A stretch of 64,000 bases of DNA from Mobula hypostoma (Eukaryota). The stretch is taken from NCBI RefSeq assembly GCF_963921235.1, contig NC_086108.1, positions 23,188,001 to 23,252,000 of the forward strand, written 5' to 3'. Positions 13,292 through 57,110 of this stretch are shown piece after piece (the stretch's first letter is position 1; each line of letters starts with the position of its first letter). Below the pieces are notes generated by a model that worked only from the letters and a program-made list of their open reading frames with translations, did no database searches and was not told where the DNA came from. A program made the translations under genes and the position numbers.

Positions 13292-14356
13292 TTGAATTGA
13301 ATTGACTTTATTTCTTACATCCTTCATATACATGAGGAGTAAAAATCTTTACATTATGCCTCTGTCAGAATGTGCAATTCATTGTAATTTGTAATAAATA
13401 GTATGTACAATAGAACAGTAAATCTAGGATAGAAATACAATTGTATCAATGTGAATTAATCACTCTGATGGCCTGGTGGAAGAAGCTGTCCTGGAGCCGG
13501 TTAATCCTGGCTTTAATGCTGCGGTACTGTTTCCTGGATGGTAGCAGCTGGAACAGTTTGTGGTTCAGGTGACTTGGGTCCCCAATAACCCATTGGGCCC
13601 TTTTTATGCATTTGTCTCTGTAAATATCCTGAATGGTGGTAAGTTCACATCTGCAGATGGGCTGGGCTGTCCGCACCACTCTGTAGAGTCCTGCGATTGA
13701 GGGAAGTACAGTTCCCATACCAGGCAGTGATGCAGCCAATCAGGATGTTGTCAATTGTGCAGTAGAAAGTCCTTAGGATTTGGGGACTCATGCCAAACTT
13801 CTTCAACTGTCTGAGGTGATAGAGGTGCTGTTGTGCTTTTTTCACCACACAGTCGGCCTGTACAGACCACGTGAGATCCTCGATGATGCATATGCCGAGG
13901 AACTTAAAGCTGTTCACCCTCTCAACCCCAGATGCATTGATATCAATAGGGGCTAGCCTGTCTCCCTTCCTCCTGTAGTCCACAACCAGCTCCTTTGTTT
14001 TTGCAACAATGAGAGAGAGGCTGTTTTCTTGACACCACTGTGTCAGGGTGATGACTACTTCTCTGTAGGCTCTCTTGTTATTATTTGAGGTAAGGCCAAT
14101 CAATGTAGTGTCGTCAGTAAATTTAATTAGCAGGTTTGAGCTGTGGGTGCGACACAGTCATGGGTCTACAGAGAGTAAAGGAGGGGGCTTTTACATTTAA
14201 CATTTAACTGTCATTCATTCTTTGGGGACACTCATCCGTTTTCGTGGATGGTTGCAAAGAAAAATCATTTCAGGATGTATATTGTATACATTTCTTTGAC
14301 ATTAAATGTACCTTTGAAACCTTAGGACACAGCCCTGAGGGGCTCCTGTGTTGAGC
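13292..14356 (-). mobile_element. Rex1/Babar-type LINE 3' fragment, with a nested ~130-bp LINE tail (14191-14320, +)
   Basis: RT C-terminus WCQENSLSL...KTKELVVDYR...FKFLG...CITAWYGN. (caatt)n tail after aataaa. Host sequence gggggctt resumes as aggacacagccctgagg (PQGCV) after the insert. Confidence 0.85.
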
Positions 14357-14850: not shown

Positions 14851-16464
14851 CTGGGTGGTGCCTGCCTGTGCAGGCCTGACAGAATCTGGAGGAATAAACG
14901 CTGGTGGAATTCTATACGTCAAGTAGCGTCTGTGGAGGGAAATGGACAGTCATCATGAAGGGCTAGCTGTCCATTTCCCTTCACAAATGCCAAGTGACTC
15001 ACTGAGTTCCGCCAGCAGTTTTTTTTGTTCTTGGCCTGAGTATCAGAGTATCAGATGGATGGATGCAGATTCAAACCCCTGCATCTCCAGTACTTTAAAT
15101 TCTAACTTTATTTCCCACACTCAACCAGCATCATGATCCAGTTTAATGAAAACTTGTCCTATGCTGGGCATTGGGCATCTTTCATACAGGGTGCTCAGTG
15201 AGTGGAGTAATTTTATATTTTCAGTCCTGGCTAGTTTACAATAGGAGTCCAGAAGGCTGCAACTTGCCCAAATGGGAGATGAGGAGCTGTTCCTTGAACT
15301 TGTGTGCAGTCACGTAATAGCAAAGTACCTTATTACTGGTTTGAAATCTAGTAGTGAACTGATATTTGTATTTGAATGTACAGTACCTTCTTGTGCTTCC
15401 AGTTTAAGAGCAAAAGTTACCTCTTAGTGTCCCTATAGTATAAGAATTGCTTTTCATTATGTACTTGGTAAGTTCATTCAGATCTATTTAACACAGCTAC
15501 ATTGTGCAGATATGAACCAACACCTATAAAGACTGGAAGTTTGTTAGCAGCATTTATACTTTGTTTGCAGAACATATCCGATACATCTCAAAAACCTAAG
15601 CTTAGGGGAAGAGAGGGGGAGCACCCTTCAGAAGCAGGAATGTAATTAAGAGTGTTCTGTCATACTAAAGTGCTCTCTGAAGGTGAAATTGCAGATATGT
15701 AATGTTTTTAAGATTAATGAATACAGTTCTCTTTTATGCTAATTATATGGATCCAGTGCATAATGTACTGTAACATTGGTATTTCTAATGGGATATATTG
15801 GTGGTGGTAATAGAATGGGTGTTAGATTGATGTAGTCATTATCTTTGTAAGATAACCTGCCTGCTACTGTGGAAGTGAGAAATTCTCTGGGTCATTAAAT
15901 ATAAAATTGTGGGTATTGGTGATGACAATTCTGGCTTGGCATTTAGAGCTGTTAATATTTTTCAGTACCAGTACGTGGAATGAACAGTTGGTTGACAAAT
16001 GAATTACAGTAGGAACACTGCCCAAATCACATAAAGTGGTAATATGATGTGAGAGGTTCCACAAGCACACTGTCAGTTCAGTTTTTCTGTGGGTTTTGAT
16101 CACAAGTTTTGAACAATTGTGTGTTTGGTAAATACTGAAATAATTTCATTACATTCATTGTTTGGTTGGTAGCGTCTTTTTTATAGTTACTCATGGGATG
16201 TTCACATGTTCTCCATCTCAGTTGTCCTTGAATGGATGGAACGCTTTGAGACAGTTAATGTATAAGCACAGAGTTTAGCAGACTAGGGGAATGAGAAACT
16301 CTGATTATACATGAAAAGTCAAGTGAAAGGAAGGAAGACAATCTTATGACAAGACAACATCTTCATGGTCAGTGAAGTACTTCTGAAATGCAGTGGCATT
16401 TGTGATGTGGGATATTGCTGAAGCCAATTTACTCTAAGATTCTGCAAATATTAATAGGACAATA

Positions 16465-16731
16465 TCGCAAAAACAAAGGAGCTGGTTGTGGATTACAGGA
16501 GGAATGGAGACCGGCTAACCCCTATTGACATCAATGGATCTGTGGTTGAGAGGGAAAACAGCTTTAAGTTCCTCGGCATACACATCACCGAGGATCTCAT
16601 GTGGTCTGTACACACCAGTTGTGTGGTGATAAAAAGCACAACAGCGCCTCTTTCACCTCAGATGGTTGAAGAAGTTTAGTAGGGGCACAATTGAGAGCAT
16701 CCTGACTGGCTGCATCACTGCCTGGTGTGGG
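16465..16731 (+). mobile_element. Rex1/Babar-type RT fragment fused to the 5' end of the Penelope-like element
   Basis: KTKELVVDYRRNGDRLTPIDING...FKFLGIHI...ESILTGCITAW. Very similar to the reverse complement of 13715-14005, with a ~30-bp internal deletion. Confidence 0.88.
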
Positions 16732-17262
16732 CCCCGTCCCTCTCTCTGCCACCAATCTGGGACTCACTCTCCACCATCTGCCAGGGACCTCTCCTACACT
16801 TCATTCTCCGTCGGATTCACACCTCCAAGAAGGACAACAAGCTCGCCCACCTGGAGCCCACGACGACAACTGGCTCCAGCCTGGACCAAAACCCCTCGGA
16901 CCGCTCTTACTGCTGCTGGGTCCTACCGCCCATCTTATTCTCCCACTACCCTCTTTCCTCCCATTGACTCCCAAACATCCCTCTATCCCTCATCGTCCAT
17001 CCATTCCTCTGATTCCCCATCCTCTCCCTCCTGAGACCACCCAGTCTTCACCCTCCTCCAACCCCAGCCCCAACCATTGCCATGTCTTCACCATCCCTGC
17101 TGACCTTCCTCTCTCTGAGGCAGAACATTCTGTCCTTAGCAAGGGCCTCACTTTTGTCCCCCTCCGTCCACACCTCAGTGAGTTCCGTGCCCGCCATGAT
17201 GTTGAACTCTTCTTCCGTCGCCTACGTCTCCGAGCCTGCTTCTTTGGCAAGGATTCCCTCCC

Positions 17263-19260
17263 CCTACTGATGACCCCTTCTCCTGTCTTCAACCCTCCTC
17301 CTCCTCCTGGACACCCCGCCCGGGCCTTCTACCTGCACTCGATCTCTTCATCTCCAACTGTCACCGAGACATCAACCGTCTCAACTTCACCACTCCTCTC
17401 TCCTGTTCCAACCTCACTCCCTCTGAACGCACTGCCCTCCACTCTCTCCGCACTAATCCAAACCTCACCATCAAACCTGCTGACAAAGGTGGTGCCGTAG
17501 TAGTCTGGCGGACGGACCTCTACCTCACTGAGGCCAAACGGCAGCTCTCTGACACCTCCTCTTACTTACCCCTGGAACAGGACCCCACCAAAAAACATCA
17601 AACCATTGTCTCCCGCACAATCACCGCCCTTATCAACTCCGGAGACCTTCCATCCTCAGCCGCTAAACTCATTATTCCCACACCCCGTACCGCTCGGTTT
17701 TACCTCCTCCCAAAGATACACAAGCCTGACTGTCCTGGCAGACCCATGGTTTCCGCCTGCTCCTGTCCCACTGAACTTGTATCTGCCTACCTGGACTCCA
17801 TTTTATCACCCATAGTTCAGTCTCTCCCCACCTCCATCCGGGATACATCCCATGCCCTCCACCTCTTCAATAACTTCCAGTTCCCCGGTCCCAACTGCTT
17901 CATTTTTACTATGGATGTCCAATCCTTATACACCTCCATTCACCATCAAGAAGGCCTTAAAGCCCTCCGCTACTTCCTGGATAATAGACCTCACCAGTTC
18001 TCCACCACCACTACCAACCTCCGGTTGGCGGAACTGGTTCTCACACTTAATAACTTCTCTTTTGGCTCTTCCTACTTCCTTCAGACTAAAGGTGTAGCTA
18101 TGGGAACTCGCATGGGACCCAGCTACGCCTGCCTCTTCGTTGGTTATGTGGAACAGTGTGTGCTCCAAACCTATTCTGGTACTGCTCCCCAACTTTTCCT
18201 TCGATACATTGACGACTACATTGGTGATGCTTCCTGCACCCATGCTGAGCTCGTCAATTTCATCGACTTTACTTCAAACTTCCACCCAGCCCTCAAATTC
18301 ACTTGGTCTATCTCTGACACTTCTCTCCCCTTTCTCGATGACTCGGTCTCCATCTCTGGAGACAGACTGTCCACTGACATCTTCTACAAGCCCACTGACT
18401 CTCAAAACTACCTCAACTATACCTCTTCCCACTCCGCCACATGCAAAAATGCCATTCCCTATTCCCAGTTCCTCCGTCTCCGCCGCATCTGCTCCCAGGA
18501 TGAGGCTTTCTGTTCCAGGACATCTCAAATGTCCTCTTTCTTTAAGGATTGTAGTTTCCCTTCTACGGTGATCAATAATGCCCTCACCCACATCTCCTCC
18601 ATTTCCTGCACTTCGGCCCTCACCCCGTCTTCCCACCACCACAACAGGGACAGGGTTCCCCTTGTCCTCACCTACCCCCCCTCCAGCCTCTGGATCCAGC
18701 ACATTATCCTCCACAACTTCCGCCGCCTTCAACAGGACCCCACCACTAAGCACATCTTTCCCTCTCCACCCCTCTCCACTTTCCACAGGGATCGATCCCT
18801 CTGCGACTCACTTATCCGCACGTCCATCCCCACGGATCTCCCACCCGGCACTTATCCCTGTAAGCGTAAGTGCTACACCTGTCCCTACACCTCCTCTCTT
18901 GCCACCATTCAGGGCCCCAAACAGTCCTTCCAGGTGAGGCAACACTTCACTTGCGAATCTGTTGGGGTCATCTATTGCATTCGGTGCTCCCGGTGTGGCC
19001 TCCTCTACATCGGTGAAACCCGACGCAGATTGGGGAACCGCTTCGTCGAGCACCTCCACTCCGTCCGCCACAACAGACAGGATCTCCCGGTAGCCATCCA
19101 CTTCAACTCTGCTTCCCATTCCCATTCAGATATGTCCATACATGGCCTCCTCTACTGCCATGATGAGGCTAAACTCAGGTTGGAGGAGCAACACCTCATA
19201 TACCATCTAGGTACTCTCCAGCCCCTTGGTATGAACATAGAATTCTCCAACTTCCGGTAA
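17263..19260 (+). pseudogene. Penelope-like RT/GIY-YIG open frame (about 665 codons), N-terminus frameshifted
   Basis: Same frame at 17461 (NLTIKPADKG) as the listed ORF from 17746. The upstream part lies in ORF 16727-17500. Confidence 0.85.
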
Positions 19261-19446
19261 TTCCCTCCCCCTCCCTTCCTCTATCTCTATTTCACATCAC
19301 CTCCCTCATAGTTCCGCCTCCTCCTACTGCGCATTGTTCTCCTGCCAATGACCTCCCTGCTTCCCCTCCCCCACCCCTTTGTCTTTCAAATTACTGTATT
19401 TTTCAGCTACCAGCATTCTTCAAACCCTCCCCAAAGTTCTTCCTTC

Positions 19447-19482
19447 AGTCCTGACGAAGGGTTTCGGCCCGAAATGTCGACT
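19447..19482 (+). ncRNA. Minimal type I hammerhead ribozyme motif
   Basis: AGUC-CUGACGA-A-GGGU(UUCG)GCCC-GAAA-UGUC^GACU. Stem I is AGUC/GACU, stem II has a UUCG loop, core nucleotides are conserved, and the predicted cleavage is after C19478. Confidence 0.85.
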
Positions 19483-19944
19483 AATCTTTTCAACTGATGC
19501 TGACTGACCTGCTGAGTTCCTCCAGCGCATTGTGAGTGTTCCTTTGACAACAGTATCTGCAGATTATTTTGTGTTTAATAGGACAATAACCAGATACTCT
19601 GCTTTTGTGATGCCGATTAAGGGATGAATACATACTAGGATGCAGAGTAACTGTTCTGCTCCCAGTATGTACAAATGTTTGTATTAAGAACACCCTTAAC
19701 TACATTCCTGCTCTGCTCTTATTAAATATTTTACATTTATTGATGGTTCTAACAAGTCATCTGAAAGATGTTGCTTCTGACAGCACATTTCCCTAACAAT
19801 ATCACACTATCTAGGTTACTTCTCAAGAGTTGAACCTACAAGCTGTTGACACAGATTCTGAAACAACGTTGGTGCTTTGAAACGCCAGTGAATTGAACCA
19901 AGCATTAGCAGTAGGAAATAATTGCTCAGAAGTACAAACACTTG

Positions 19945-27242: not shown

Positions 27243-29330
27243 CCATAACACTATAAAACACAGAAGCAGAATTAGGCCATTTGACCCATCAAGTCTATCC
27301 CACGAGTCTTTCCAGCCATTCGACCATATCTGACCTATTTTCCCTCCAACTCTATTCTCCTGCCTTCTCCTTGTAAATCTTAACGGGTTTATTAATCAAG
27401 AACTTATTAACCTTTGATTTAAATATACCCAAATGACTTGGCCTCTATAGCAGTCTGTGACAGTGAATTCCACAGATTCGCCACTCTCTCGCTGAAGAAA
27501 TTCCTTTTCACCTCTGTTCTAAAGGGATGTCCTTCTTTTCTGAAGCTGTGTCCTCTGGTCCTAGCTTCTGCTACAATTGGAAACATCCCCTCTACATCCA
27601 CTCTATCTGGACCTTTCAATATTCAGTAGGTTTCAATGAGATTCCCACTCACTCTTCTAAACTTCAACGAGTACAGGCCAAGAGCCATCAGATCTTACTC
27701 ATGCAGTAACCTTTTAATTTTTGGGATCATTCCTGTAAACATCCTTTGGACCCTGTCCAATGCCAGCACATCCTCTCTTAGACAAGAGAAAATCCGCAGA
27801 TGCTGGAAATCTGAGCAACACACACAAAATGCTGGAAGAACTCAGCAGGCCAGGCAGCATCTATGAAAAAGAGTAAAGTTGACGTTTTGGGCCAAGACTC
27901 TTCATCAGAGCTGGTTCTGATGAAGGATCTCGGCCTGAAACATTTACGGTTTACTCTTTTCCGCAGATGCAGCCTGGCTTGCTGAGTTCCTCTAGCATTT
28001 TGTGTGCATTGCTTTGTGCCTTTGTAGCTTGTCAAAAGCCTTCTGATAGGCCAAATAAACAAGATCCACTCACTCTCCTCTGTTTTTCCTGCCTGTTATT
28101 TCATCAAAGGATTCCAACAAGTTTGGCAGGTAATATTTTCCCTTAAGGAAATCATGCTGATTTCCACCTGTTTTATCATGTGCCACTCAGTAACCTGAAA
28201 CCTCATCTTTAATAATGGACTCCAACATCTTAGCACCCACTGGTCAGGTTAACTGGCGTATCATTTCTTGTCTTTTGCCTGCCTCCCTTCTTAAAGAATG
28301 ATGTGATAGTTTCAATTTTCCAGTCCTCTGGAGCCATATTAGAATCTAGTTTCTTGAAAGATCACGACTAATACCTCCACAATCTATTCAGCCACAGTTG
28401 CTTCATCCTCCCTTTAAAATGCTGCTACTTCTTTGGGTTGAACCAATTTTGCATCTTCTGAATTACTCCCAGAAATTTCAGCCATTGCTGCTCTGCCATC
28501 ATTCCCGCTAGTGTGCCCTTCCAATCAACTTTGACCAGCTCTTCTCTCATGATTCTGTAGTTACCTTTACTCCATGATAATACTGAAACATCTGATTTTA
28601 GCTTCTCCCTCTCAAGCTGCAAGGTAAATTCTATCATGTTATGATCATTGCCTCTTATGAGTTCCTTTACCTCAAGCTTCTGAATTCAATCTGGTTCATT
28701 AAACAACACCAAATCCAGAATTGTCTTTTCCCTGGTGGGCTAGAACACAAGGTACTCTAAAAAACTATCTCATAAACATTCTATGAATTCCTTCCCCTGG
28801 CATGCAGCAGCAACATAATTTTTCTAGTCTGCTTGCATATTGAAATTTCCCATGACCATCAAAACATTGCCCTTTTTACAGGCCTTTTCTATATCCTGTT
28901 GCAATCTGTACCCCACATCTTGGCTACTGTTCAGAGGCCTGTATATAATTCTCATTCGGGTCTTTTTACCCTCGCTGTTTCTTAACTCTACCCACAAAGG
29001 ATTCTGGATCGTCTGATCCTATATCACTTCTTTCACAGGATAAGATTTTATTTTTTACCAACAGAGCCACCCCACCCCCTCTGTTACCTGCCTGAACTTT
29101 CAATATTATATGCATCCTTGGATGCTTAACTCCCAGCTGTTATCTTCTTTCAACCATGACTCAGTGATGCCCACACATCATACTTGCCAATTTCTAACTG
29201 CGCTGTAAGTTCATCTACCTTATTTTGTATACCGTATGCATTGAGATATGGCACTTTATAGTCCGGCATTCACCTCTCTTCGTTTCACTCTTCTTTTCGT
29301 TTAAAGCCCTATCCACAGCCCTTGTTTGTA
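27243..29330 (-). mobile_element. Decayed CR1 LINE (endonuclease to 3' tail) with deletions and a nested fold-back insertion
   Basis: Colinear with the 5763-8480 copy. RTRGHSFRKEGHPFRTEVKRNFFSERVANLWNSL. Confidence 0.85.
27782..28013. mobile_element. Penelope-derived fold-back element with two divergent hammerhead cores
   Basis: Arms cacacaaaatgctggaagaactcagcaggccaggcagcatct / agatgcagcctggcttgctgagttcctctagcattttgtgtg. Cores TCATCAG at 27902-27908 and CTGATGA at 27917-27923. Confidence 0.85.
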
Positions 29331-30957
29331 ATCCCAGATCTTGGTTCCAGCAAAGTTTATGTTCCATTGGAACAGCTCCCTCCTTCCCCAATACTGGGGC
29401 CAATGTCTCACAAATTCAAGCCCACTTCTCCCACCCAGTTTTCCATCCACACATTCACACCCCAACAATGAAAGGAAAGGAAGATGCTGTTGGCTAACAT
29501 CCGATAAGATGAAGGAAAATTTTTAAAAAAGTGGATATTGGAAATCTGAAACAAAAACAGAAAATGCTGGACACAACTGAATGTCATCAGCATCAGTGGA
29601 ACCGTAATTGATGTGAAATGTTGCCTGACCTACTGAGTGTTTCCAGCACTTTCTGTTTTTACTTCTGACGCAGTAGATTGTATAATTATGACTGTAGTGA
29701 AAGAGTGTAGTTGTAGCCACAAGTGACAGCAGGTGTTGGAATCCAGAGTAAAACACCAATAGCTGGACGAACTCAGTGTTGGGCAGTGTCTGTGGGGCAG
29801 AAGGAATCATCATTTTTCTCGACCCAAAATATCTACAATTCCTTTTGCCCCACAGATACTGCTTGACCTACTGAGTTCCGTCAGCAGTTTACTTTTTGGT
29901 GTAGTTTGCATTTGGACCAGTTACATGTTGGCATTGAGAGAAGGATGCACTGTACAATTTGGTTATACCCTTAGATCTGCACAAACTGTGCGTCACCTAC
30001 TGGTTGGCGTGTTTCTGTGCATGTTGTAATAATACTAGTGAGAATTGCGAGCAAGTTCAAATAAAACTCTGGGTTGCCTCATCTCAGGCCAATTGAAAAC
30101 ACATTTTCTGGCTTGGCTCTTACTGTGGTATTGGTTTCCAGACAATGTCAACCTCGATTGTAGTAAGTTTTCCCTGAAACTGTTTTGTAAACACACAGGA
30201 GGCCTTGGGAACACTTTGTTATGTTTGCATAATTGACCACAGAGGACCAGATCTTCAGTTGTTTATACTAAAAGCCTGGAACTGCCAGCTTCATTTGTAT
30301 CTTTAGGGAATGACCTGCTAATGTATGTCCCTGTGGAGAACTCCCATTCAAAGGCTGTTATATTTATGACTCTCTTTTATTACTTCTGTTGATATCTCCT
30401 GTTTAAAGGGAAACCCTAGCTAAAACATCAAATTGAGAAAAGCTCCACTGTTTTTTTAATGAAAATGAATGAAGGGGCAATACCTGCAATGCAGGAAGGA
30501 TCAGGCAGGAACTGGAAGATCTGTTACACCTCCAATGTAGCTTTGAAGGCTGTAAGATGTATCTGCATACAAACACACAAAAGAGCAAGAACCTGCATTT
30601 GTATATTGTCAGTCACATCCTCTTGACATCTGAAATTAATTTTTAGTGAATGATGTACTTTAGTCTCAGAGTCACAGAGAAATACACAACAGAAACAGGC
30701 CCTTCAGTCCACTAACTAACCTTCAAACATCCACGGACACTAATCCTACATTATTGCCAAGTTTTTATTCTCCCCACATTTTCAATATTTTCAATTGCTC
30801 CTACCTACCCCCACAAACCCCAAACACATTCAACCACTCACCTACTGTACACACTGGGGGCAACTTACTGTGGCCACTTAACCTATAAAGCTGTAGGTCT
30901 TTGGGATGTGTATGGAAACTGAAACACTTGGTGGAAACTCCATGCGGTTAATGCCCA

Positions 30958-35318: not shown

Positions 35319-35417
35319 ACCAACATAGCCAGCATTGAACACATTATTAAATTGGCCTCATTACCCTAATTTTGACCCTTAGCCCTGAAAAGTTCTCACT
35401 TTAAATAAATTATCTAA

Positions 35418-35805
35418 AGCAACACACACAAAACGCTGAACGAACACAACAGTTCAAGCAGCATCTATGGAAAAGTGTAAACGGTCAATGTTTCTAGCCA
35501 AGACCCTTCTTCAGGACTGAGAAGGAAGGGGGAGATGCCAGAATAAAAAATGTGGGGGGAATGGAAGGAGGCGAGCTGGAAGGTGAAAGGTGAAACCAGG
35601 TATGTGGGAAAGGTCAAGCGCCAGAGAAGAAGGAATCTGATAGGAGAGGAGAGTGGACAATAGGAGAAAGGGAAGGAGCAGAGGACCCAAGGGAAAGTAA
35701 TAGGCAGGCACGAAGAAGTAAAAGGTGAGAGTGGGGAATTTGGGGGGGGGGGGTGATTTGTTCGCCAGAAGGAAAAATCAGTATTCATGCTATTAGGTTG
35801 GAGAA
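35418..35805 (-). mobile_element. Penelope-like 3' end with hammerhead-like motif
   Basis: The minus strand reads MNTDFSF (compare MNIEFSNFR), a pyrimidine-rich UTR, then agtcctgaagaagggtcttggctagaaacattgacc. Confidence 0.85.
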
Positions 35806-39343: not shown

Positions 39344-40277
39344 ATTCGATGCTCCAACTGATCAACTGATGAAGGCAAACATACCATATACCTTCTTTAT
39401 CACCCTATGTAATTGTGTTGCCACTTACAGTGAGTTATGTACTTGGGCCCCAACATGCCTCTCTCTGCACATCAGAGACCTGAAGGGTCCTGCCATTTAC
39501 TGTTTAGCTTCCTCTTACGTTTGATCCCTCATTTTACAGCATCTCACACCTGCTCAGATTAAACTTTGTTGACTAGTTCTCTGCCCATATCTGCAGTTGG
39601 TCTATGTCCTGCTGTCTCCTTCATTGTCCACAACTCCATTAATTTTTGTGTCATCCACAAATTTATTAATAAGCCCATCTTCAAAATGTCAAAATGGACA
39701 GCATTCTGAGCCCTAAGTCCTGTTGAGTTTCATAAAGGAGGAGAAATGTAAAGATGAAGAGGAGCTTTTGTGAGGACCTTCCAGGGAAACTTGGAATTAG
39801 AGTAATCTTTGGAGGATTTGAGTAGTCATTAGGACTGGAGGTGATTACTAAGAAAGGGAGGGTAGGAACTTGGAGAGACTTGAAAGTAACAGTAAAAGGC
39901 ATGACTGGAGACAGTGCTTAATTGATATACATTGATATTTGCTGACAATTGAAAAACTAAAGCTAAAGAAAAACACAAATTAAAAGCTGTAAGTTCTGGG
40001 AATACTCAGCAGGTCAACAGCATCACTGTTGGGAGAAAAAGAGTCAATATATCAGGTCAAAAATTTCACTATTGCTCATTTCTTCCATTATGATGGAAGC
40101 ACATAATTGGCTGTAAGGCATTTAGGACATGCTGAGTTCTTGAGAAGTACAATTGAAAAGCAAGTTCCTTCTTCGCATACATTGCAGGAATAATGACCGA
40201 ACATATTGTGCTGTTGTTACTAATCTCGTAAGAAATGATACATAGAAAGTGAATGCTCTTTCTGCCTTTTATTGCAG

Positions 40278-41340
40278 GGCTCTTTGATAATTGCTCCTAT
40301 TCACTCAGTGAGAAGGGTTGGAAGATTGGCATTCAATCATTAGAATATTCCGGAAGGAAGGATCCTCGCTTTTTCTTCTCTCTCCGCACAGACAGAGCCA
40401 GAAAAGCCACCACCATCTTTGCCCACCACAATTACCATCCCAACTCTTGGACTTACCTAGCTGTCTCTTACGATGGCCGGCAGATGCTGCTCTATATCAA
40501 TGGAGCCAGAGTTGGGGCCAGCACCAGGCAGTCAGGGAATCTGCACAGTGAGTTCATGAGTTCTTGCCGGACGCTACTGATCGGTGGGGACAGCTCTGGG
40601 AATAGACATAATTTCCGTGGTTACCTGGCCAGCTTTACCCTGTGGAGGACCGTGAAGTCCCAGGCTGAATTAGTGAAGAGCTACCACCAAAGTATGCCAG
40701 GAAGAGATTCCTCCTTGGTTTTGATGGCAGATTTCTCCAGGATGGAAGAACAATGGATTCCAAATAAGGACTCCCGTTATCCCATCCGCAACATAATGCT
40801 TCTACCAGAGCCAGAGTTAGCATCTCCCTTGACTCCTCCACCCTGTGGGCTGACAGTTTGTGACAATATTGATGTTATCAAGAACTACAACAGTTATTGG
40901 CCACTAAGGGGAGAGAAGCTGATACGCTACCGAGTGATTAACATTTATGATGATAATCGGCAAAACCCCACAGTAACAAAACAGCAGATTGAGCTCCAAC
41001 ACCAAGCACTGAACAGGGCCTTCAGCAGGTATAACATAACCTGGGATCTCACTGTCACTGAGGTCCTCAACTCGACCATTCGGAACCGAGTAGTCCTGGT
41101 CAACTGTGAGACGAGCAAAATTGGGAATGACCACTGTGACCCCGAGTGTGATCACCCCATGACTGGCTATGATGGTGGGGACTGTCGATCCATGGGAAAG
41201 TGCTATCTGTGGAAGAGGCGGGACGGGATCTGCAACATGGAATGCAACAACATGGTGGATGATTTTGATGACGGTGACTGCTGTGATCCCATGTTTACCA
41301 ATGTGCAGAAAACTTGTTTTGACCCTGACTCTCCAGAAAG
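40278..41340 (+). CDS. pappa2: Internal coding exon of pappalysin-2 (PAPP-A2 metzincin): LamG-like domain, N-terminal part of the protease domain, LNR1 and LNR2
   Basis: Translation GLFDNCSYSLSEKGW...RFFFSLRTDR...FMSSCRTLLIGGDSS...YWPLRGEKLIRY...KIGNDHCDPEC...CNNMVDDFDDGDCCDP...TCFDPDSPER. As I recall the families, YWPLRGEK, FMxSCR, GNDHCDPEC and DFDDGDCC are PAPPA2-type rather than PAPPA-type. Acceptor: pyrimidine tract plus ttgcAG ending at 40277 (phase 1). Donor: AG|GTAGGA at 41340/41341 (phase 2). Confidence 0.95.
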
Positions 41341-42254
41341 GTAGGAATACTTTACTTTCATTGGCATTCATGGAAGATCACTACTCTGGAGCGTTTTGAA
41401 TGCTAGATCCCTGGAAGTATTTAGCGAGGAGGGAAATACATTAATAAAAGACTGCGTGACTGAAGTGGGGCTGAGGCTTGGGGCAGATCAATCATGATCA
41501 TATTAAATGGTGGGACAGATTTGTCAGACTGAGTGGCCTATTTCTGCTCCTATGTTCTTGCATCCTTGTATGATTGGTACTGTGAATTGAAACATTCACT
41601 AGTTCAGCGTGACCTGCCACCATCTGTAAGGAGTTTGTACTTTCTCTCCGTGACTGTGTGGGTTTCCTCCAGGTGCTCTGGTTTCCTCTTATAGTCCAAA
41701 GATGTACCGGTTGGTAGGTTAATTAGTCATTGTAAATTGTCTTATAATTAGGCTAGCGTTAAATCTGGTGTTGCTATTTCAAGTTGAAATAGTATGATAT
41801 TAGAACAATGTTGAACAACCACCATAAAGAGTACTGATATGGGACTTCAGTTACTGCTTGCTTCAATTACAACTTGGTTGCGAACAATCATGGACTAGTT
41901 GGGTCAAAACGGCTGGATCCATGCTGTATTGCTCTATAACTCTAATCCCACAATTAACCAGTTTTTGTTAGTTCTCTGCTGTGGCAGTTATTACAGATTG
42001 TAGTCAAACTGAACCTTGACACACCCCCTAAAAAAATCTTGGGACACTATGCTTAAACTTTTTAACCAGCAGTCCAAAGTCTTATTGATACATAAATATT
42101 GGACGAAATTATTTGTTTCTGTAATATGTGTGTTCTTAAATTATTCAGGCCCCTGATAATACACCGGAAATTTAGGAAGCTGAGAGTGACTTCCACAGCC
42201 AAGGCAATCTGGAAGTGGGTGCAATGCTGTATTTGAGGCTGTATGGCACATATA

Positions 42255-53720: not shown

Positions 53721-53907
53721 AACAGGAGAAAATCTGCAGTTGCTGCAAATCCAAGCAACACACACAAAGTGCTGGAGGAACTCAGCAGGCCAGGCAGCAA
53801 TTACAGAAAGAAGTACTGCCGAAGGGTCTCGGTCCAAAACGTCGACTATTCTTTTTGCCATAGTTGTTGCCTGGCTGCTGAGTTCCTCCTACATTTTGTG
53901 CGTGTTG
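53721..53907. mobile_element. 187-bp Penelope-derived fold-back element with 14-bp TSD
   Basis: Inverted arms caacacacacaaagtgctggaggaactcagcag / ctgctgagttcctcctacattttgtgcgtgttg. Flanks are CCATCTCTGTCACT (53707-53720) and CCATCTCCATCACT (53908-53921). Confidence 0.85.
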
Positions 53908-56764: not shown

Positions 56765-57110
56765 GTCTCCTCCCCCTTCCCTTTCTTCCATGGCCTTCTG
56801 TTCTCTCCTTATCAGATTCCCCCTTTTCCAGCCCTTTATCCCTTTCACCAATCAACTTCCCAACTCTTTAATTCACCCCTCCCCTTCTCCTGTTTTCACC
56901 TATCACCTACTACCTTGTGTTTCTTCCTCCCCTCTCCTCACCTCCTTACTTTTGACTTCTCATCTTTTCTTCTCCAGTCCTGATGAAAGGCCTTGGCCTG
57001 AAACATCCATGTTTATTATTAACCATAGCTGCTGCCTGGCTCGCTGAGTTCCTTCAGCATTTTGTGTGTGTTGTTTGGATTTCCAGTATCTGCTGATTTT
57101 CTCTCGTTTG
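56765..57110 (+). mobile_element. Penelope-like 3' UTR with decayed hammerhead
   Basis: agtcCTGATGAaaggccttggcctGAAAcatc at 56976-57007, followed by the shared terminus ...ttccagtatctgctgattttctc. Confidence 0.85.

Follow-up and report, generated by a model that had tools for sequence, protein, structure and literature searches.

A truncated Penelope-like retroelement in the first coding intron of pappa2 of Mobula hypostoma carries a minimal hammerhead motif in its 3′ end repeat, and this copy is very probably an inert passenger. The motif occupies 36 nt (positions 19447–19482, + strand) of the window, the whole stretch of 64,000 nucleotides that was analysed (NC_086108.1, 23,188,001 to 23,252,000). 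Its carrier element lies between target-site duplications at a site that is empty in two relatives, the motif is present in the genome at high copy number and decays at core and neutral positions alike, and copies in host genes show no strand bias. Judged by its layout, the 36-nt sequence is a genuine copy of the Penelope-like minimal hammerhead motif, for which self-cleavage, as a dimer only, is putative. The motif class is already published (PMC4209133).

The motif and its carrier element

Direct reading of the bases gave a minimal type I hammerhead layout with a complete core. The 5′ strand of stem I (AGUC, 19447–50) is followed by CUGACGA (19451–57), by an extra base, A19458, between A9 and G10.1, and by stem II (GGGU 19459–62, loop UUCG, GCCC 19467–70), in which G19459 and C19470 form the G10.1–C11.1 pair. 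GAAA (19471–74), UG (19475–76), U16.1 (19477), C17 (19478) and the 3′ strand of stem I (GACU, 19479–82) complete the motif, all on the + strand. On this layout cleavage is predicted between 19478 and 19479. There is no helix III, as two nucleotides separate A15.1 from U16.1. Positions 15.1–16.1 are a palindrome, ACGU, in the family majority; the window copy has U19475 at position 15.2 where the majority has C (a CpG transition), and its AUGU pairs with itself only via two G-U pairs. The sequence-only reading of this DNA had given the core, the 4-bp stem I, the pairing of stem II and the position of the cut site as we find them, but it had overlooked A19458. The extra base is one of four hallmarks listed for these minimal hammerheads (Cervera and De la Pena 2014, PMC4209133), and a search pattern that followed the earlier description, without it, gave zero matches.

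The loose core pattern alone matched the window 12 times against 6.4 expected, barely above chance, and stems were therefore added. The resulting structure descriptor (core, stem II of at least 3 pairs, GAAA-N0-4-UH, stem I of at least 4) had one match in the window, the motif at 19447, and one match in total in 30 shuffled windows. The family 36-mer with C15.2 is found in 267 exact copies in the 3.48-Gb genome, compared with 0 for the reversed control. On both counts the motif is not a product of chance. The hammerhead search that had been proposed as a check thus succeeded with the descriptor and failed with the Rfam models, whose 11 matches at E ≤ 10 included no hammerhead family; since helix III is missing, this was to be expected. 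The stable helix III and covariance-model match of a canonical, monomer-active type I hammerhead are absent here. What is present is the core CUGANGA/GAAA/UH in type I order, helices I and II and the extra nucleotide, the features of the minimal hammerheads of Penelope-like elements.

In metazoan Penelope-like elements, single minimal hammerheads are inactive and dimers are weak (PMC4209133), and a review gives the same low cleavage rates (PMC6765202). The ray motif shares with them the type I layout, the intact core, a 4-bp helix I, the extra base between 9 and 10.1, the G10.1–C11.1 pair, the missing helix III, the palindrome at 15.1–16.1 (in the family majority), the location in end repeats and the thousands of dispersed solo copies. 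It differs in U15.2 and in its helix II of 4 bp, which has 7–8 bp in the Schistosoma motifs. Rays are not named in the accessible part of that paper, whose supplements may list shark or ray motifs.

The motif starts 190 nt past the stop codon of a 684-aa open frame (17206–19260, +) with a DKG motif, a reverse transcriptase (RT) with YIDD, a CX3CXXC linker (residues 552–559) and, at the C terminus, a GIY-YIG endonuclease. The Pfam matches, RVT_1 (E 4.3e-06) and GIY-YIG (E 2.6e-04), are both slightly under the curated cut-offs. A single frame in which RT precedes GIY-YIG, here also with the YIG motif, is that of an EN+ Penelope-like element. The proposals that this is a Penelope-type minimal hammerhead and that stem III could form only with a partner are borne out by the layout and by this element context; the link to the RT/GIY-YIG element directly upstream had been missed. 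A linker of the CX2-5CXXC type between RT and endonuclease marks both Neptune and Nematis elements (PMC8557442), and the window element likely belongs to the Neptune clade. It has in common with Neptune elements the order of RT and C-terminal GIY-YIG, the DKG motif and the linker, and the family also shows the partial tandems and inverted 5′-truncated copies described there. What sets the window copy apart is that its target duplication measures 14 bp and that it is joined to a captured piece of a LINE.

Copy alignments place the 5′-truncated element at 16729–19574 (+). Its 3′ end is fixed by the other best-matching copies, 29 of 29 of which cease to align at 19571–19583, and the 3′ untranslated end, or pseudo-LTR, covers 19261–19574 (+). 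About 220 bp are missing at 16902 and there is a frameshift near 17255. The end sequence of the pseudo-LTR recurs upstream in longer copies, for example L209 and L211, and 8 of 29 other long copies have an upstream motif in the same orientation (L206, L209, L211, L213, L216, L218, L223 and L224). Two repeats arranged in this way could give rise to a dimer. The window copy, truncated within the body, lacks the upstream end repeat. We also considered and rejected a non-LTR retrozyme. Vertebrate non-LTR retrozymes share a type I hammerhead from Penelope end repeats (10.64898/2026.07.22.740005), but they are built of non-coding tandem units, whereas here a single motif lies behind an RT-endonuclease frame in a 3.1-kb coding insertion.

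Insertion into pappa2 and neighbouring copies

On the + strand, pappa2 extends over about 408 kb. Its first coding exon (G000:C50:23143972–23144589, +) lies 44 kb before the window, and its second, which encodes LamG and LNR domains, was located by protein identity and Pfam at about 40268–41341 (+; approximate ends), with 95–96% identity to stingray pappalysin-2. With exons at both sides, all on the + strand, the motif is indeed sense within a pappa2 intron, as had been claimed, namely the first coding intron, which is 84 kb long. Intron 2, beyond the second coding exon, contains the copies at 53816 and 56980. In intron 1 there is also a minisatellite of about 2.4 kb (268–2724), built of 33-bp units and readable as an 818-aa open frame. 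On a larger scale, the pairs pappa2–astn1 (G000:C50:23.1–25.9 Mb) and pappa–astn2 (C67:30.0–32.0 Mb) are each arranged tail to tail and form paralogous blocks on two contigs.

Two identical 14-bp copies of a target-site duplication, at 16451–16464 and 19575–19588 (+), bracket the 3.1-kb insertion that carries the motif. Among the four runs compared, contigs of two related organisms (X19 and X20) join 16450 directly to 19575, while the other two had no bridging piece among the matches listed. In the two relatives with the empty site the flanks diverge by about 4–7% from the window. Since they lack the insertion at the orthologous site, it is younger than the split from them. Inside the same duplication lies a 267-bp fragment of another, high-copy LINE (16465–16731, +; end of the RT region), which we take to be Rex1/L2-like. 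The LINE's own continuation leaves a loose end at 16731, and the fragment's translation resembles that of the open reading frame at 13645–14157. The fragment is absent from the alignment in 29 of 29 other long Penelope copies, and about 3 bases are shared at its joint with the Penelope sequence. It was likely captured in a template switch that led from RNA of the Penelope element to RNA of the LINE.

Motif alignment identified five further copies in the window, all decayed. The antisense copy at 27791–27908 (−) has a changed G12 and is the inverted arm of the sense copy at 27914–28016 (+), which keeps the core but has lost its own stem I and carries ACAU and U17. A second antisense copy lies at 35416–35528 (−). 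In intron 2, the sense copy at 53812–53906 (+) has a core broken at A6 and G12 and an inverted arm at 53731–53799, and the sense copy at 56972–57098 (+) keeps the core, carries ACAU and has lost the 3′ strand of stem I. Several entries in the earlier list of copies must be corrected accordingly. The copy named 27880 is the one on the minus strand with G12 changed; 53816 and 53839, counted separately, are a single copy with A6 and G12 changed. Those at 27917 and 56980 do keep the core in sense orientation, but they have ACAU and no own stem I and failed the descriptor, which none of the other copies in that list passes. Fold-back (inverted) short insertions of the element end were seen at 27791–28016, 53731–53906 and 29774–29876; a microRNA reading of the last was rejected, its Rfam matches being weak and all below the gathering score.

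The possible partners at 27917, 53816 and 56980 lie 8.5, 34 and 37.5 kb from the 19447 motif. On paper, 27917 could serve as the catalytic half for the 19447 site with a Watson-Crick stem III and wobbles in stem I, and 56980 could do so with both stems all Watson-Crick. One has to go 48 kb upstream for the nearest perfect sense copy, which has an inverted twin at a distance of 731 nt. Dimer cleavage within the pappa2 transcript, which the sequence-only reading had thought conceivable, is unsupported: the partners are degenerate and distant, two relatives lack the insertion, the decay of the window copy matches that of its siblings, and introns show no purge of copies in sense orientation.

Abundance, decay and strand of the motif family

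With its five CpG sites allowed to vary, the family 36-mer was found in 638 copies in the 3.48-Gb genome, and a looser pattern that still excludes copies with U11.1 gave 11,171 exact matches; both reversed controls gave 0. Extrapolated to the whole genome, the densities in four genes (see below) amount to about 350,000 remnants, and about 70,000 motifs would pass the descriptor. CpG changes were counted by eye in the first 100 of the 638 copies, some rows of which are inverted pairs and thus non-independent. Each site was changed in 9–25% of copies: U at N7 in 25, G8>A in 9, loop C>U in 16, loop G>A in 12, C11.1>U in 17, G12>A in 15, C15.2>U in 11, G16.2>A in 15, C17>U in 14 and G1.1>A in 11. 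Changes that kill the core (G12>A, G8>A) are about as frequent as neutral changes in the loop, which points to neutral decay after insertion. C15.2 is kept in 89 of the 100, and U19475, a change that 11 of 100 family copies share, is best read as ordinary CpG decay. Over 191 nt the window copy departs in 4 places from the majority of 28 close copies (one of the 29 was omitted for an indel). The family majority, in a position table from the four-gene sample, retains every core position, the extra A and the palindrome.

The four-gene sample comprised 1.70 Mb: pappa2 (408 kb) and pappa (294 kb) in full, plus partial stretches of 600 kb from astn1 and 400 kb from astn2. The strand was taken as that of the host gene, with nested opposite-strand genes left out of account. 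If sense cleavage of pre-mRNA were harmful, sense copies should be purged. The sample held 171 motif copies, 90 sense and 81 antisense, with 0 in the reversed control. Descriptor-intact copies were 21 sense and 15 antisense (p 0.41), strict copies 11 and 9, and core-broken copies 54 and 49, and intact and broken copies did not differ by strand (Fisher p 0.57). When copies with an inverted neighbour were dropped, the sense/antisense counts were 40/31, 12/5 (intact) and 6/4. The whole of pappa2 has 8 sense and 3 antisense intact motifs, not significant alone. No sense-strand deficit of intact copies was thus found in the 1.70 Mb, where the share of intact copies that are sense has a 95% interval of 0.41–0.74, compatible with mild depletion. 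For these four genes the result argues that such motifs are harmless in pre-mRNA. Selection that inactivates sense copies was rejected as well, broken cores and G12>A being without strand bias.

The CpG formed by C11.1 and G12 is altered far beyond other sites in the four-gene sample, with U11.1 in 88 of 171 copies and G12>A in 43 of 171. Among the 79 copies with C11.1, 43 carry G12>A, more than at other sites, and the strand split is 21/22 against 18/17 (sense/antisense). Young U11.1 copies have common flanks, which suggests that there are source subfamilies whose stem II base is shifted or paired as G-U, and perhaps that subfamilies with a dead core have been mobile.

Possible activity and alternative explanations

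For the 36-mer alone the predicted fold is a rod that pairs core bases G5–G8 (19453–19456) with the cut-site strand (19475–19478), an inactive form into which monomers are predicted to lock. C at position 7 makes G5–G8 complementary to the cut-site strand, perfectly so in the family majority. With natural flanks, stems I and II are predicted to form at 4–17%. The predicted energy of the double hammerhead is −12.0 kcal/mol for the window copy and −16.3 for an ACGU sibling, a cost of about 4 kcal/mol for the U, and separate monomers reach −22.0 and −25.4 kcal/mol, respectively. Nearest-neighbour energies omit the non-canonical contacts of the core, and even consensus dimers come out 9–10 kcal/mol uphill, so that these values serve only to rank variants.

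In the source element, one motif per end repeat would allow two to pair, through their ACGU palindromes and by an exchange of stem I strands, in a double hammerhead that would be slow and probably helped by the element's protein. The window copy would have lost its upstream repeat on insertion, which leaves it without a near partner. Alone it would adopt the rod, U15.2 would weaken the dimer helix further, and the intron would be spliced out well ahead of any encounter with a partner 8–48 kb away.

Cutting in trans at a low level, by element-derived RNA or by a far copy in the same pre-mRNA, perhaps with protein assistance and without effect on the gene, is rather unlikely. All core and stem I bases of the window motif are intact, copies with ACGU or ACAU can be paired with it on paper into heterodimers that have a 4-bp stem III and a 4–6-bp stem I, and partner sequences are very abundant in the genome. 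A Poseidon element of Anolis, moreover, has a motif that is cut only with the element's protein (PMC11167929). It resembles the ray motif in its stems I and II and core within an end repeat and is weak alone; it belongs to another clade, and the ray motif is known from sequence, with no intact source frame in cis. Against trans cutting stand the small number of intermolecular pairs (8–10), a loop-closure penalty of about 14–15 kcal/mol at 8–37 kb by extrapolation from hairpins, the competing folds, and the Anolis RNA-seq data, in which no ends at the cut site were found (PMC11167929). In Xenopus, 1 of 9 dimers cut in vitro, and about 43% of copies are intronic (10.64898/2026.07.22.740005). A somewhat stronger case, though still an improbable one, is that the sequence is non-catalytic even in source elements and persists at the beginning of the element RNA as a signal for folding or for protein binding. 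Anolis core mutants inserted in vitro unimpaired (PMC11167929), Naiad elements spread without canonical motifs (PMC8557442), and many ray copies carry G12>A. The family majority nevertheless keeps the core, the extra A and the palindrome, and the Anolis core-mutant and rescue data demonstrate genuine cleavage (PMC11167929). This explanation concerns the family, and the window copy is inert under it too.

The least probable explanation, to which we give hardly any weight, is co-option, in which the motif would regulate pappa2 by co-transcriptional cleavage of the intron. It would resemble the amniote intronic ribozymes, the RECK hammerhead and the HDV-like CPEB3 ribozyme, with which it shares the sense orientation and a large intron, and there is precedent for intronic ribozymes that affect host mRNA (PMC10919898; PMC6155905). 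Those that play a role in the host show conservation across species and a monomeric fold (PMC6155905; PMC10919898), whereas the ray motif is one among thousands of like copies, has neither stem III nor the extended stem I of the conserved type, and has a CpG change in the dimer helix and the 4 differences from the majority noted above. The orthologous site, where a domesticated ribozyme would be conserved, is the one found empty in X19 and X20. A host-domesticated ribozyme was rejected on these grounds: the motif is lineage-specific, decaying and without stem III. The inert passenger in a truncated Penelope-like element remains our preferred explanation, and as found the window motif is one decaying copy of a published motif, of little importance in itself.

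A better, though putative, dimer candidate than the 19447 motif, and the best local one, lies outside the window in pappa2 intron 4. There, locus L041 has two intact ACGU motifs in sense orientation, 487 nt apart (G000:C50:23304406 and 23304893, +), the only same-strand intact pair closer than 5 kb in the 1.70 Mb scanned. The pair stems from an end repeat, in partial tandem, of a related Penelope family, and its flanks are themselves repeats. Its double-hammerhead fold is predicted 31 kcal/mol above the minimum-energy fold, in a model that lacks core contacts. For an assay of dimer cleavage, this natural tandem would be much the better substrate. It is a long shot that such tandem motifs in ray pre-mRNAs would fold as double hammerheads with Penelope protein and be cut before splicing, a reading whose premise is tens of thousands of sense-oriented minimal hammerheads in ray pre-mRNAs. 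A literature search that left most subscription journals outside its scope found no report of such cutting of host pre-mRNA for sharks or rays. The strand comparison is a first small test of bias, in which sense intronic copies were not purged from four ray genes. If host pre-mRNAs were cut, the output of host genes would depend on retroelement activity via RNA catalysis, an undescribed route from transposon to gene control.
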